A stretch of DNA of 64,000 nucleotides, taken from NCBI RefSeq assembly GCF_055900595.2, contig NZ_CM148325.1; one strand, written 5' to 3'. Below the pieces are notes generated by a model. The model was not told where the DNA came from, ran no database searches, and saw only the letters and a program-made list of their open reading frames with translations. Shown here in pieces: positions 25,568 through 30,005 of this stretch (its first letter is position 1; the number at the start of each line of letters is the position of its first letter). The position numbers and the translations under genes are program-made.

Positions 25568-26986
25568 TTATTTCCCCTTCCTCGCCGCCTCATACGCTGC
25601 CAACGTTCGTACTCTCGCTTCTTTGTGATCGACTATCGGTTGCGGATAATCCAGCGTCACACCTGATTTATCTGCCCACTTCCACGGTTCATGCACCGCT
25701 TTCCCTGGTACATCGCGCAACTCTGGTAGCCACCGGCGGATAAACTCACCTTCGTGGTCAAATTTCTCGCCCTGAGTTGTCGGATTGAAAATACGGAAAT
25801 ACGGTGCAGCATCGGTTCCAGTAGAAGCCGCCCATTGCCAGCCACCGTTATTGGCTGCCAAATCACCATCAATCAGTTGCGACATGAAATATCGCTCGCC
25901 TTCCCGCCAGTCGATCAGCAAATCTTTCACCAGAAAACTGGCAGTAATCATCCGCAGGCGATTATGCATCCAGCCAGTGCTGTTAAGCTGACGCATGGCC
26001 GCATCAACAATCGGGTATCCCGTTTTGCCTTCCTGCCAGGCCTTTAAATGCGCGGGATTACTTTGCCACTGTACGCGATCGGTCCAGGCAATAAAGGGGC
26101 GATGCTTACACAGTGACGGGTGATACGTCATCAAATGACGGTAGAACTCGCGCCAGATCAGCTCATTAAGCCAGACGCTACCAGCCCCGCCATCCAGCGC
26201 TTGCGGCTGTTCCGCCAACAGGCGATGCAGACACTGGCGAGGCGATAACCTACCCGTTGCAAGGCTTGCAGACAAACGGCTGGTGCCTTCCACTGCCGGA
26301 AAATCACGCTGCTGATCGTACTGACTCGCACCGTTCTGGCAAAACTGGCGTAATTGCGCAATCGCCGCTTTTTCTTCCACCGGGAAATGCGCGGTATCGA
26401 AAGACTGACGAGGGTAATTCAGCGTAATAGATGGCGCGGGATCTAATGATCCGCTACTCCGAACTTTTGGCGCAGCGACGCACTCCGGCATCCCTTCCCG
26501 CAGCCGTTTCAGCCAGGCATTCTTAAAAGGCGTAAAGACTTTGTACATCTCATGATTGCCAGTCATCACCGCCCCCGGCGGCAGGATCACGCTGTCATCG
26601 AACCCTTCACACACCACGTTACTCAGCGCTCTTTCAACTTCCACATCCCGCGCCCGCTCATTCACCTCATACTGATAGTTATAAAACAGATGGGTAACAC
26701 GATTTTCCGCGCACACCTGTTTAACTATTTCGACGCTGGCGGCAAAGTCATCCACTTCATGAAACAGCAAAGGAATACCTTTTTCCGCCAGCGCGTTTTG
26801 CAGCGCATTAAGTTGTGTATTGATAAGTTCAGCCTGACGCGGCGACACATTATGCGCCGCCCACTGGCGTGGTGTAGCGATATACAACGCCAGCACGCGT
26901 GCAGACGAATTGCGGCAGGCGGCAGCAAGCGCGAGATTGTCGTGCAGACGTAAATCCTGGCGAAACCAGACCAGATGGGTAGTCAT
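25568..26986 (-). CDS. phr: deoxyribodipyrimidine photolyase
   Basis: 472 aa, MTTHLVWFRQDLRLHDN..., FAD-binding C-terminal domain. Confidence 0.97.
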   Translation of the reverse strand: MTTHLVWFRQDLRLHDNLALAAACRNSSARVLALYIATPRQWAAHNVSPRQAELINTQLNALQNALAEKGIPLLFHEVDDFAASVEIVKQVCAENRVTHLFYNYQYEVNERARDVEVERALSNVVCEGFDDSVILPPGAVMTGNHEMYKVFTPFKNAWLKRLREGMPECVAAPKVRSSGSLDPAPSITLNYPRQSFDTAHFPVEEKAAIAQLRQFCQNGASQYDQQRDFPAVEGTSRLSASLATGRLSPRQCLHRLLAEQPQALDGGAGSVWLNELIWREFYRHLMTYHPSLCKHRPFIAWTDRVQWQSNPAHLKAWQEGKTGYPIVDAAMRQLNSTGWMHNRLRMITASFLVKDLLIDWREGERYFMSQLIDGDLAANNGGWQWAASTGTDAAPYFRIFNPTTQGEKFDHEGEFIRRWLPELRDVPGKAVHEPWKWADKSGVTLDYPQPIVDHKEARVRTLAAYEAARKGK

Positions 26987-27492
26987 AAAACTCCTGCATG
27001 GCGCAAGTTAATCACCCGCGGCCAAAGTTCGAAATAACGCTGCCCTGAAAGCCAGGCGTCAGGATAAAGCGCCATATAGTGTTTGATACGCATCAGCGGC
27101 GCAAGAAGCGGTTGCTCGCCACGGCGATAACTGTCGATAAGCGACGCCAGCTGCTGGCGTTCTGTGGAATCAATATGTGGGCGAAAATATCCCTGAACGT
27201 GCATCAAAACGTTAGTATGATCACGCCGGTTGGCAGGGTGAGAAAGCAAAACAATTACGCGTTGACGGTACTGGTTGTAATAGTCATCCAGATTTTGCCA
27301 CTGGTGAATATCAGCCACAAACGGGCCAAGTTTGCGGTATTCCGGCTGGGAATGAGCCAGAAAGACGAGTTTATAGCGGCTGTGATAATCGTTGAGCGCC
27401 CCGCGCGTTAGCCCATGTTCTTTCAGTCGATGTAACTCATGAAGGGCGAAGATACGGATTAGGGTGCTTTCATCAAATCGTTGCTGATTCAT
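26983..27492 (-). CDS. ybgA: DUF1722-family protein
   Basis: 169 aa; overlaps phr start; SD AGGAG lies inside an inverted repeat. Confidence 0.9.
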   Translation of the reverse strand: MNQQRFDESTLIRIFALHELHRLKEHGLTRGALNDYHSRYKLVFLAHSQPEYRKLGPFVADIHQWQNLDDYYNQYRQRVIVLLSHPANRRDHTNVLMHVQGYFRPHIDSTERQQLASLIDSYRRGEQPLLAPLMRIKHYMALYPDAWLSGQRYFELWPRVINLRHAGVL

Positions 27493-27576
27493 TACTGCTC
27501 CTGAACGGTTTACAGGAGTAAGTGTAGACGGCAGTATTGAAAAAACGAAACGAATAAATGAATTCGGTAAAGAAAT

Positions 27577-27984
27577 TCAATTATTCATAATAAAGTTCAT
27601 AGTAGCGATAAATAGTTTCTTTTCTTCATCACTCATGGCAGCAACGTTTAACATGTTGTCATCAAAATTATTGATGTTATTTTTTAATTTCAGTAACTGC
27701 AAAGGAGAAAAATAGTCACTCCCGATGAGATTACTCAATACCAGCAATAGCTCCCCATCATATAAATAGCCCACCATAAGATTAATCTCTATCATCTCAA
27801 TTGCTTTTTGTACAGCAAGCGCCGGTAAGATATTCTGACGAAGCATTTTGGCAATATCATTTTCATCCAGTTCATCGGGTGTTTTATCTAATAAAGAATT
27901 ATACCAGTTTATTAAACCACTTTTGAAAGCGAACGAATCATATTGCAGGTGATAAATCTGTTTTAGGGTTTCTTTATTTTTCAA
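27577..27984 (-). CDS. hypothetical protein, AT-rich accessory ORF (possible immunity protein)
   Basis: 135 aa ORF with no TM segments, very AT-rich codon usage unlike neighbouring core genes; function not recognised. Confidence 0.5.
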   Translation of the reverse strand: MKNKETLKQIYHLQYDSFAFKSGLINWYNSLLDKTPDELDENDIAKMLRQNILPALAVQKAIEMIEINLMVGYLYDGELLLVLSNLIGSDYFSPLQLLKLKNNINNFDDNMLNVAAMSDEEKKLFIATMNFIMNN

Positions 27985-28026
27985 TTTATAGTGCCTTTAT
28001 TTGCTATAATTTTTTCTGAAATAACA

Positions 28027-28494
28027 TCAGCGAGTTTGCTCAGGTGCAGGGATGACCGAAATTGTCATGTATTTTTTCAGTCTGGCTTCTCGTTTCACAC
28101 CTTTCGGATCTGAACCAAAAGGAAGCGTCAAGCATGGTGAGTCAACGGTTTGGATTGTCCAGAGAGAATCACCAATGAATCTGAAATTGATGCTATCCGC
28201 TGTAACGGATAATCCCTCAAAACTTCCCGTCGCATACTCATTACCCAAACGTACGGTCTCTTTAACTCCATCGTTAACATCGATAAGGACAATTGTCAGT
28301 GATTCCTCAAAAATAACGTCATCCGTCAGAAAAAGGATATAACGCTGGTCATTAACCTGAATTGCCGCTTCCAGTATTTGCCCTGGTACAATAATACCTG
28401 TGTTATTGCCATTGAGCACAACGTCAGACTGAGCCTGAGATAAATCAGTCGCTTTGTGAACCTTGACCAACGATATCGAATTAACCTGTTGCAT
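28027..28494 (-). CDS. hypothetical protein, accessory ORF
   Basis: 155 aa from MQQVNSISLVKV; the 31 extra N-terminal codons in the longest ORF are the shadow of an upstream glycine-rich frame; start lies 2 nt after the stop of that small ORF (TGAttATG). Confidence 0.5.
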   Translation of the reverse strand: MQQVNSISLVKVHKATDLSQAQSDVVLNGNNTGIIVPGQILEAAIQVNDQRYILFLTDDVIFEESLTIVLIDVNDGVKETVRLGNEYATGSFEGLSVTADSINFRFIGDSLWTIQTVDSPCLTLPFGSDPKGVKREARLKKYMTISVIPAPEQTR

Positions 28495-28496
28495 AA

Positions 28497-28637
28497 TCAA
28501 TTCCACAAGCGCCCCATTTCCCATGCGGCAAGTGCACCGCCGACAAAGCCGCCAATAAGTACGCAAACAGGTGCTCCTGGACCACACATCAATCCGGTCA
28601 ACGCACCGCCTGCGACAGCACCGGCAATAATATTCAT
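28497..28637 (-). CDS. small glycine-zipper hydrophobic peptide (46 aa); possible C-terminal remnant of a disrupted gene
   Basis: MNIIAGAVAGGALTGLMCGPGAPVCVLIGGFVGGALAAWEMGRLWN with GGN-rich codons; no clear SD; in frame with the upstream 85-aa ORF across two stop codons. Confidence 0.3.
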   Translation of the reverse strand: MNIIAGAVAGGALTGLMCGPGAPVCVLIGGFVGGALAAWEMGRLWN

Positions 28638-28820
28638 CCGGGTACGACTGCCAGTGGTTTTAACAGATTTACGCTCACCGTTACGTATCCTGCCACCACT
28701 CAGGTTGCAGACGCGGCAGTCACAGCCTTGACGGTGTTGAAACTAAAGTTCAGGTGATAGTCTGATGTTCATAGTTTGAGCATTATCCCCTGACAGAATA
28801 AAATCAAGCAGTGTCAATGA

Positions 28821-29078
28821 TCACGTGTATATATCATTTAAAGCATTATCAAGCCAATCTTCCATGTTTTTAATTTTAGCCCGCGCATATAAATCATTCA
28901 TAACATCCTCATAACTCTGCCCATCATTGACCATACAATTAGCTGTATGAGGCAGAACATGTATAAAATCAGACAATATAAAACAAGCCTTTGAATTTCC
29001 AGAGTTAGCTGCAATTCTGATATCAATCAATCCTCTGGCAATCAATTTAAGAATAACATCTTGCATTTTAATTTCCAT
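28821..29078 (-). CDS. hypothetical protein, AT-rich accessory ORF
   Basis: 85 aa ORF (MEIKMQDVILKLIARGLIDIRIAANSG...); weak SD; same reading frame as the glycine-zipper segment downstream. Confidence 0.4.
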   Translation of the reverse strand: MEIKMQDVILKLIARGLIDIRIAANSGNSKACFILSDFIHVLPHTANCMVNDGQSYEDVMNDLYARAKIKNMEDWLDNALNDIYT

Positions 29079-29160
29079 ATCATCCAGTTAAATTTCAGTA
29101 GTAAATCGTCTATCAAAAAAAGATGAAATTAACATTCATAAATTTATTACAATATGAAAA

Positions 29161-29514
29161 TCAAAAATATACATCATCAGCTTCTTCCGAAAACTCCATG
29201 GCTCCTAAGGCACCTAAATCAATACTAAATATAGTATCACTTTCCTTAGCACTCCCAACATAGATAAAATAGCCTAAATCTCCGTCTTGACCTATCAAAA
29301 AATAGTCAGGTTCCACTTGTTGAATATCATATGTTTCATTTCTTTCAATAAGATCAGAATAGTTATATAAATATAATGTTTCGTGCTTCTTATTAGTTAT
29401 TTCATAGGTCTCACTATCTTTAATTTCTTCTATCAAAAAATGTTTATACACTGGAGGAAACTTGATTGACATGTCAAATTCAATTTTATTTATATATTCT
29501 ATAATTTTATTCAT
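29161..29514 (-). CDS. SUKH (SMI1/KNR4)-like immunity-type protein
   Basis: 117 aa with FPPVYKHFL near the N-terminus and YFLIGQDGDLGYFIY near the C-terminus, resembling SUKH family signatures; AT-rich; no HMM run. Confidence 0.55.
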   Translation of the reverse strand: MNKIIEYINKIEFDMSIKFPPVYKHFLIEEIKDSETYEITNKKHETLYLYNYSDLIERNETYDIQQVEPDYFLIGQDGDLGYFIYVGSAKESDTIFSIDLGALGAMEFSEEADDVYF

Positions 29515-29798
29515 GTTAAGAATACATGAAAGATTATTTATTGATTATCTTGATGAATATATCTTCACTTTTTATTTTCATTTACTCATCGCGGAAATAC
29601 ACATTGCCTTGTAGACAAGCGCTAATAATACGTTATGAACCTGACTTCCGCCAGACAATCAATCTATGAATTCATTACGCCGTAGTGTTTTAGAAAGACA
29701 CTTTCTGACCAGATGGTGAACCATATACTACATCGCGCATTATAAAAAAACCGCCAGCGTTTCCACTAGCGGTTTTCAATGTTTTCAAAACTCAGCAA

Positions 29799-30005
29799 TC
29801 AGTAAAAATCACCGGTTGCCTTTTCGGCCTGATCCATCCACACCGGTTTATCGCTGGTTTTCGACCAGACGCGATGCAGATAGCTGTAAAAGCGGGCGCG
29901 GTCTTTCCAGAAAAGCATGAAAGGCAGCGCCAGAACGCCCGCTGCAACCGCATAAGTACGGCGTAAAAAGATAAGCCATGCAGGATATTCTCTGTAGAGT
30001 TCCAT
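29799..30005 (-). CDS. ybfA: DUF2517 small protein
   Basis: 68 aa, [49 protein letters not shown]... Confidence 0.88.

Follow-up and report, generated by a model that had tools for sequence, protein, structure and literature searches.

A probable orphan SUKH (SMI1/KNR4) immunity gene in a toxin-free island at the RhsC slot of Escherichia coli

Introduction

What is encoded by a short, AT-rich reading frame which stands, in an Escherichia coli chromosome, where strain K-12 carries its RhsC element, and may it be of use to its carrier with no toxin gene beside it? The frame lies within a contiguous stretch of 64,000 nucleotides, referred to below as the window. A sequence-only reading had taken the product for a SUKH-like immunity protein, separated from its toxin and possibly protecting against Rhs or CDI toxins delivered by neighbouring bacteria, while RefSeq labels the same CDS, in genomes identical over window positions 27400-29850, as 'hypothetical protein' (WP_032302698.1). 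SUKH immunity, orphan immunity genes and polyimmunity loci have all been described already, so that the gain offered here is incremental: this 'hypothetical protein' receives a specific predicted function, namely immunity to Tox-SHH DNase effectors, and candidate attackers can be named.

Results and Discussion

The reading frame and its product

The frame is located on the minus strand and spans, from ATG to stop, exactly positions 29161-29514. Its product of 117 amino acids reads MNKIIEYINKIEFDMSIKFPPVYKHFLIEE...YFLIGQDGDLGYFIY...EADDVYF, with FPPVYKHFL forming residues 19-27 and YFLIGQDGDLGYFIY residues 71-85; both the extent of the frame and its two motifs had been given exactly by the sequence-only reading, to which the strand is now added. 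Compared to relatives of 120 amino acids the C-terminus is 3 residues short. Assuming the frame's own composition (29% G+C), a stop-free run of 117 codons would be expected by chance at about 8e-6 per frame start. The DNA around the frame has a G+C content of 26-30% while that of the flanking genes amounts to about 52%. The protein is acidic with a pI of 4.18, 25 aspartate and glutamate residues facing 9 lysine and arginine residues.

The insertion site

The gene order within the window, which represents E. coli chromosome, is dtpD (+), phrB (-), ybgA (-), island, ybfA (-) and kdpFABC (+). On one side the annotated ybfA gene (29799..30005, minus strand) constitutes a conserved flank whose terminator, a hairpin with a U-run visible in the sequence at about 29743-29779, ends at the border of the island. 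This flank is 98.3% identical to K-12 up to position 29745, just past the terminator, where the homology to K-12 ends. It restarts at position 27530, which is 38 bp before ybgA (26983..27492, minus strand, likewise annotated), the conserved flank on the island's other side. The K-12 interval between these two points comprises 9,568 bp with the order rhsC-ybfB-ybfO-ybfC-ybfQ-ybfL-ybfD, as compared to 2,214 bp in the window. The island replaces the K-12 RhsC element (9.6 kb) at the same breakpoints between ybfA and ybgA, and the earlier placement of the gene at the position of an Rhs element proved right in that RhsC lies, in K-12, between the breaks at 29745 and 27530. The island itself, to which no strand is assigned, extends from 27531 to 29744 and is delimited by these breakpoints as well as by its G+C content of 26-46% versus about 52% in the flanks. 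It is devoid of an Rhs core, and an Rhs core with YD repeats ending in PxxxxDPxGL plus a CT toxin is not encountered anywhere in the window.

Family membership and fold

When the window protein is searched alone, the Pfam model SMI1_KNR4 (SUKH-1, PF09346) matches it at a modest E=2.1e-4 (22.3 bits), and SUKH_6 and SUKH_5 match more weakly. A database search yielded 41 relatives from Escherichia, Cronobacter, Serratia, Photorhabdus, Xenorhabdus, Mangrovibacter, Tenacibaculum and Zobellia, many of which, including several alleles or orthologs in RefSeq, already carry the name SMI1/KNR4 (family protein). Within an alignment of 24 family members PF09346 is recognised at E<=1e-3 in 20, the best value being 1e-9. 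Pfam support is accordingly weak for the window protein alone and clear across its family. A profile built from the same 24-member alignment matches the sequence of PDB entry 3D5P with E=2.4e-10.

The 24-member alignment reveals seven invariant columns (P20, I74, D77, D79, L80, F83 and I84), all of which are kept by the window protein, and nine further positions conserved to at least 90% (Y23, F26, L27, Y71, F72, L73, G75, Q76 and G78). Two more conserved blocks are present, ERNETY (57-62) and DLGALG (99-104). The SUKH motifs hP..Y..Fh of the N-terminal helix and G.DG.L.hhh of the C-terminal strand are both found in the window protein; the segments FPPVYKHFL and YFLIGQDGDLGYFIY fall on invariant or at least 90% conserved columns and align to the 3D5P segments LPKQYKSFL and GMDGDIGYIL.

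A confident AlphaFold2 model built on the family alignment (pLDDT 85.2, pTM 0.78) shows the order helix-helix-strand-strand-helix-helix followed by three strands. The top match of this model in the PDB, as determined by Foldseek, is again 3D5P (E 5.8e-6, TM 0.67, rmsd 2.1 Å), followed by 2PAG, the core of yeast Knr4 and B. subtilis YobK. The 117-residue product is a single-domain SUKH-1 (SMI1/KNR4) protein with the alpha+beta SUKH fold. The SUKH-like character proposed by the sequence-only reading is hence confirmed by the Pfam models and the family profile, and the fold comparison which it had recommended leads to the same result.

Relatives of the gene adjacent to Tox-SHH toxins

In E. marmotae, Cronobacter and Photorhabdus a homolog which is 55-72% identical to the window protein starts about 20 bp after the stop codon of an Rhs gene, and the last ~100 residues of these Rhs proteins constitute a Tox-SHH domain (PF15652). 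The Rhs protein of E. marmotae and Cronobacter bears a PAAR motif, its gene being preceded by vgrG and a gene of the DcrB family; this vgrG/DcrB/PAAR-Rhs layout is a type VI secretion effector arrangement. In Tenacibaculum, a member of the Bacteroidota, the homolog follows a stand-alone Tox-SHH reading frame at a distance of 7 bp. In Serratia fonticola a Tox-SHH remnant of 95 amino acids precedes the homolog, which belongs to an orphan array following an Rhs gene.

We scanned the genomic context at 67 loci, one genome per species, by applying a toxin-domain HMM to the upstream region. At 13 of them a Tox-SHH-type reading frame ends 16-51 bp upstream of the homolog, and all but one of these 13 belong to the 16 closest relatives (at least 53% identity). 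The toxin is intact at nine (Ewingella, Winslowiella, Erwinia, Mangrovibacter, three Xenorhabdus, Photorhabdus and Flavobacterium) and frameshifted or truncated at the other four (Yersinia nurmii, X. mauleonii, Pantoea ananatis and P. namnaonensis), while upstream of the close relatives in Superficieibacter, Brenneria, a Pantoea MAG, X. bovienii and Commensalibacter the toxin-domain HMM finds no toxin. Since the toxin is intact at some loci, broken at others and absent from a third group, these loci form a series leading from toxin-immunity pairs to immunity genes left on their own; together with them, the locus in the window outlines a stepwise path of this kind. Taking all observations together, toxin adjacency is seen in Cronobacter, E. 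marmotae, Photorhabdus, Xenorhabdus, Ewingella, Winslowiella, Erwinia, Mangrovibacter, Tenacibaculum and Flavobacterium. The search for a toxin domain beside homologs in other genomes, suggested by the sequence-only reading, has thus placed them directly downstream of Tox-SHH in many genera.

The toxins next to the relatives retain the signature QSHHP...H. With a pI of 9.1-9.8 these toxins are basic; the immunity proteins, being acidic, carry the complementary charge. The window protein is 69-72% identical to the immunity proteins found in such a cognate context. In a table published in 2012, Tox-SHH is paired with Imm-SUKH (PMC3482391, in which polyimmunity loci are described as well), and for two Tox-SHH effectors, V2c with V3c (PMC10902643) and Txe4 with Txi4 (PMC9020831), DNase activity and neutralisation by the product of the downstream gene have been reported. 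As judged from gene neighbourhood and sequence, the partner of this SUKH subfamily is Tox-SHH, a basic His-Me/HNH DNase at the C-terminus of VgrG/EagR-associated PAAR-Rhs type VI effectors, and the Tox-SHH His-Me DNase domain is the predicted partner of the 117-residue protein itself. Of the toxin types which had been considered for it, nuclease holds in the form of the Tox-SHH DNase carried beside the relatives by type VI PAAR-Rhs effectors; deaminase and CDI toxin do not.

The SUKH superfamily contains members without any role in immunity (PMC3113570), and the gene might accordingly encode a housekeeping regulator or adaptor comparable to yeast Smi1/Knr4 or bacterial Syd, its position within the island being incidental. 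The more distant homologs from Campylobacter, oral Streptococcus, Lachnospiraceae and Treponema would fit such a role in that an iterated toxin-domain HMM detects no toxin upstream of them. This HMM converged on the close toxins only, and since it finds nothing upstream of the distant homologs no alternative partner toxin can be named for those. The closest relatives, however, are repeatedly and tightly coupled to one and the same toxin domain in two phyla, and the gene in the window is accessory (3% of E. coli), AT-rich and located beside a CdiI_3 immunity gene. We therefore attach next to no credence to a housekeeping function.

Orphan status

Using complete PAAR-Rhs-Tox-SHH proteins (1394 and 1534 amino acids) as queries, tblastn retrieves nothing from the 64-kb window at E<=0.01, and a search of the island with the same toxins under relaxed settings (word size 2, E<=10) yields chance-level matches only. 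The idea of a hidden toxin remnant upstream of the SUKH gene was rejected on account of these results. The 284 bp between the SUKH gene and ybfA show no similarity to Rhs or Tox-SHH. DNA similarity to the modules of E. marmotae and Cronobacter (about 76%) spans the SUKH gene from start codon to stop codon only; no flanking toxin DNA survives. In a cognate pair the toxin gene stands directly upstream of the immunity gene and in the same orientation; at the window locus there is no such gene. With the Rhs gene missing in its entirety and the toxin along with it, the SUKH gene is an orphan at this locus, in agreement with the sequence-only reading, which had noted the want of an adjacent toxin.

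The gene would not be an orphan at all if its genome encoded a cognate Tox-SHH or another toxin at some place beyond the 64-kb window, in which case it would provide ordinary self-immunity. The view taken here covers 64 kb, and many E. coli possess several Rhs loci, the median number of sites matching the Rhs core end being 3 per genome. We searched 5426 complete E. coli genomes at the DNA level, a genome-wide check with a sensitivity of about 65-70% identity, and among the matches listed none extends into the segment of the E. marmotae module that encodes Tox-SHH. Strain Z0117EC0005, whose DNA is the same as that of the window at positions 27400-29850, matches this module in the SUKH gene and an Rhs core-end segment only. 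Moreover, in every informative relative the toxin is located immediately upstream and never at a distance. A distant cognate toxin is consequently very improbable.

Further genes of the island and its distribution

All reading frames of the island are co-oriented with ybfA and ybgA. The SUKH gene is followed, 82 bp downstream, by an unclassified frame of 85 amino acids (28821..29078, minus strand), annotated as a CDS in RefSeq, for which neither Pfam nor NCBIfam gives a match and whose named homologs are all from E. coli or E. fergusonii; it is a possible candidate for a second orphan immunity gene. Next comes a truncated small frame (28497..28637, minus strand, by translation) with 46 amino acids from the first ATG and 82 open codons. 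Its hydrophobic tail resembles a glycine zipper, and the only homology it shows is with the last ~40 codons of a 98-residue frame of Enterobacter ludwigii; Pfam returns but a non-significant match for this Enterobacter glycine-zipper protein. RefSeq identifies positions 28584-28703 (120 bp) as a fragment of an IS630 transposase.

The stop codon of the small frame lies 2 nt ahead of the start of its partner, an unclassified protein of 155 amino acids (28027..28494, minus strand), which is all-beta according to an AlphaFold2 model with a pLDDT of 85.6. No Pfam family matches it, and its model has no significant fold match in the PDB, the best being to WD40-like sheets (E 0.035) and that to the immunity protein Tni2 reaching E 0.43. 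Its 124 homologs occur in Enterobacter, Cronobacter, Pseudescherichia and Kosakonia. At the DNA level, the pair formed by the small frame and the 155-residue frame is 84% identical to the pair of 98- and 155-residue frames beside smpB in Enterobacter ludwigii. It is carried by a block of about 810 bp (28020-28829) which is missing from the commoner E. coli variant of the island.

Closest to ybgA lies a gene (27577..27984, minus strand) for an immunity protein of 135 amino acids of the CdiI_3 family (PF18616, Pfam E=2e-17) which has no toxin adjacent to it and bears the RefSeq name 'contact-dependent growth inhibition system immunity protein'. In total, the SUKH gene thus clusters with an unrelated immunity gene (CdiI_3) and with two unclassified small frames and one truncated frame, while no intact toxin gene is present. 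NCBIfam assigns none of the five island reading frames to a family, even at E<=1. In its composition the island is a toxin-free heterogeneous polyimmunity locus as defined in PMC3482391.

Of 5426 complete E. coli genomes, 170 (3%) possess the SUKH gene, and for the CdiI_3 gene the count is likewise 170. All copies are chromosomal, and at every E. coli locus inspected both genes are present together in an island between ybfA and ybgA. The same arrangement is observed on all six contigs listed for a protein cluster which NCBI labels E. fergusonii. The equal counts of the two genes (170/5426) indicate that the island is carried as a unit. There is no recombinase or integrase in or beside it, the sole trace of a mobile element being the IS630 fragment. 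In the literature searched we found no paper describing the ybfA-ybgA immunity island of E. coli.

Maintenance and expression

Between the window allele and the commoner E. coli allele of the SUKH gene 13 synonymous and 5 non-synonymous differences are counted (dS 0.24, dN 0.018), corresponding to a dN/dS of 0.07. This reveals purifying selection between E. coli alleles. Part of the low ratio could date from divergence before the gene became an orphan, and the value is consistent with function while falling short of proof. Matches in 169 of the 170 genomes extend over 80% or more of the length of the SUKH gene; the exception which was sampled contains an IS5 insertion.

A scan for promoters and terminators detects no sigma-70-like site on the minus strand between 29515 and 29745; the sites it reports are no more numerous than in shuffled sequence and none of them is rightly placed. 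Directly upstream of the gene lies the ybfA terminator. The window allele is devoid of a Shine-Dalgarno sequence, the weak AGGT element of the commoner allele having been lost: the duplex with the anti-Shine-Dalgarno sequence has a ΔG of +0.9 kcal/mol as compared to -3.8 for the commoner allele and -8.9 for E. marmotae. Owing to this missing Shine-Dalgarno sequence, expression of the window allele is unproven. The AT-rich island may, in addition, be silenced.

These features raise the question of whether the gene is a silent relic, that is what remains of a former Rhs-CT/immunity module or orphan array, unexpressed, useless and kept as a neutral remnant. Apart from the lacking ribosome binding element and the lack of a promoter-like site behind the ybfA terminator, the clear series of toxin decay in other species, the IS5 copy inside the gene in one E. 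coli genome, the patchiness of the island (3% of genomes) and the debris within it, namely the IS630 fragment and the truncated small frame, point in this direction. Against neutrality stand the presence of at least 80% of its length in 169 of the 170 genomes, the retention of every invariant residue and the few non-synonymous exchanges (5 versus 13 synonymous; dN/dS 0.07); furthermore, an unconstrained frame of 354 nt at 29% G+C would soon gain stop codons, and orphan immunity genes devoid of a toxin do work elsewhere (PMC10539506, PMC12247911). In view of both sides we regard a silent relic as unlikely, albeit as the strongest of the competing explanations.

Proposed function

We consider it likely that the gene is an orphan immunity gene directed against Tox-SHH Rhs effectors of other Enterobacterales and located in a toxin-free immunity island at the RhsC slot. 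This assignment of the minus-strand gene at 29161..29514 draws on the Pfam match, the profile match to 3D5P, the AlphaFold2/Foldseek comparison, the adjacency of homologs to Tox-SHH, the dN/dS of 0.07 and the pI of 4.18. According to the mechanism which we envisage, a neighbouring enterobacterium armed with a type VI secretion system, for example E. marmotae or Cronobacter, would inject the toxin; the acidic cytoplasmic SUKH protein (pI 4.2) would bind the incoming basic Tox-SHH domain one-to-one and this binding would block its DNase activity. The carrier would thereby survive an attack which it cannot itself mount.

Binding, expression and cross-protection at about 70% identity to the cognate immunity proteins are what we infer. 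Immunity specificity can be narrow. Orphan SUKH immunity proteins with only ~30-46% identity to the cognate one still protect in Bacteroidales (PMC12247911), though, and an orphan Rhs immunity protein which is 88% identical protects Serratia (PMC10539506). Because divergent orphans protect there, cross-protection by the SUKH protein of the window is, by analogy, plausible.

More tentatively, and at a level of confidence that stays clearly below an even chance, the island as a whole may represent an enterobacterial counterpart of the acquired interbacterial defence arrays of Bacteroidales: compact, stable, toxin-free and recombinase-free, maintained by purifying selection in a minority of the lineages of E. 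coli and E. fergusonii, and rendering these resistant to Tox-SHH Rhs effectors, as well as other toxins, of further Enterobacterales such as E. marmotae and Cronobacter. If this were true, some E. coli would have swapped a weapon (RhsC) for a shield at one chromosomal site. The locus is a clean E. coli case in which an immunity-only island has taken the place of an Rhs locus. Provided that protection does take place, the island would also be a lineage marker of resistance to type VI attack in gut or environmental competition.

Comparison with known systems

The RhsC element of K-12 (rhsC-ybfB-ybfO-ybfC...) occupies the identical chromosomal site with the same breakpoints. In contrast to it, the window island possesses no Rhs core, no YD repeats and no CT toxin, and there is no sequence similarity between the two outside the flanks.

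With the Imm-SUKH proteins of polymorphic toxin systems (Zhang, Iyer & Aravind 2011/2012; PMC3113570, PMC3482391), the prototype of which is PDB entry 3D5P (BF1740), the window protein shares fold and motifs. Tox-SHH (HNH/EndoVII fold), listed as a partner class in these systems, is also the partner class of the relatives of the window gene, and in both the immunity gene is located directly 3' of the toxin domain. The window locus differs from them in that the toxin is wholly missing and in that the protein is short, comprising a single domain of 117 amino acids with a Pfam score of 22.3 bits.

The toxins adjacent to the relatives have their Pfam domain and the SHH...H signature in common with the effectors of Agrobacterium V2c-V3c (PMC10902643) and Pseudomonas plecoglossicida Txe4-Txi4 (PMC9020831) and with Tke4 of P. 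putida, in all of which delivery is by a PAAR-containing effector of the type VI secretion system and neutralisation by the downstream gene. The terms SUKH and Smi1 are never applied to V3c or Txi4 in PMC10902643 and PMC9020831.

With respect to orphan immunity genes, two further systems have to be considered, Serratia SMDB11_2280 (PMC10539506) and the SUKH orphans of the AID and rAID arrays of Bacteroidales (PMC12247911). The Serratia orphans are located behind an intact Rhs-RhsI pair whereas at the window locus the entire Rhs gene is gone. The rAID arrays are recombinase-associated mobile elements; the island contains no recombinase and is therefore not an element of the rAID type, and it occupies a fixed chromosomal slot in every genome examined. 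Like the window gene, the orphans of both systems are effector-free, arrayed and diverged from their cognates, and in both systems the orphans protect.

Allelic divergence of the island

Alignment of the AT-rich island (27531-29744) with its counterpart in E. coli Ecol_316 reveals that the two alleles share only 91-93% DNA identity, and between the two E. coli alleles the SUKH immunity gene (29161-29514, minus strand) shows a dS of 0.24. This divergence looks high for alleles of a single species and suggests either an old polymorphism or import from another Escherichia species, such as E. fergusonii.

A difference is found immediately 5' of the start codon of the SUKH gene (29515-29540, minus strand), where the window allele reads TTTCATGTATTCTTAACATG in place of the CTCAGGTATTCTTAACATG present in the commoner E. 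coli allele, so that the sole Shine-Dalgarno-like element is lost. The calculated free energy of the Shine-Dalgarno duplex amounts to +0.9 kcal/mol in the window allele, compared to -3.8 kcal/mol in the commoner one.

Gene content of the two variants

The variant of the window is represented by 13 genomes, which span the entire island interval, and the commoner variant by 157 genomes. Only the former possesses a block of about 810 bp (28020-28829) which comprises a 155-aa gene, a truncated small ORF and a 120-bp fragment of an IS630 transposase (28584-28703; RefSeq annotation). In the commoner variant, which lacks this block, the interval between the SUKH gene and ybfA is longer by about 240 bp.

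The truncated small ORF (28497-28637, minus strand) encodes a glycine-zipper-like hydrophobic tail (…IIAGAVAGGALTGLMCGPGAPVCVLIGGFVGGALAAWEMGRLWN), and the 155-aa all-beta ORF (28027-28494, minus strand) starts 2 nt past its stop codon. In Enterobacter ludwigii, an intact pair of 98 aa and 155 aa adjoins smpB. This gene order resembles that of a small membrane-toxin/immunity or bacteriocin-like module, but family and fold searches yielded no match.

Directly 3' of the SUKH gene lies an 85-aa ORF (28821-29078, minus strand) which may be another orphan immunity gene. It has no match in Pfam or NCBIfam, and all of its named homologs originate from E. coli and E. fergusonii. The island further contains an immunity gene of the CdiI_3 family (PF18616; 27577-27984, minus strand) with neither cdiA nor any other toxin gene nearby. 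Of 5426 E. coli genomes, 170 carry it, a count equal to that of the SUKH gene.

Relatives in other taxa

Distant members of the SUKH subfamily (42-48% identity) are kept in oral and gut taxa, namely Campylobacter (loci L060-L070), oral Streptococcus (L074-L089), Lachnospiraceae (L065-L082) and Treponema (L067). The region upstream of these genes is devoid of a toxin, and while some of the loci adjoin housekeeping genes, others are situated within immunity-like gene arrays.

On megaplasmids of Bacillus cereus and B. thuringiensis (database matches H128-H134), T7SS LXG toxins end in a Tox-SHH domain that shares 53% identity with the Rhs tip of E. marmotae, the C-terminal domain of a PAAR-Rhs type VI effector. 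Type VI and type VII delivery systems therefore carry one and the same toxin cassette.
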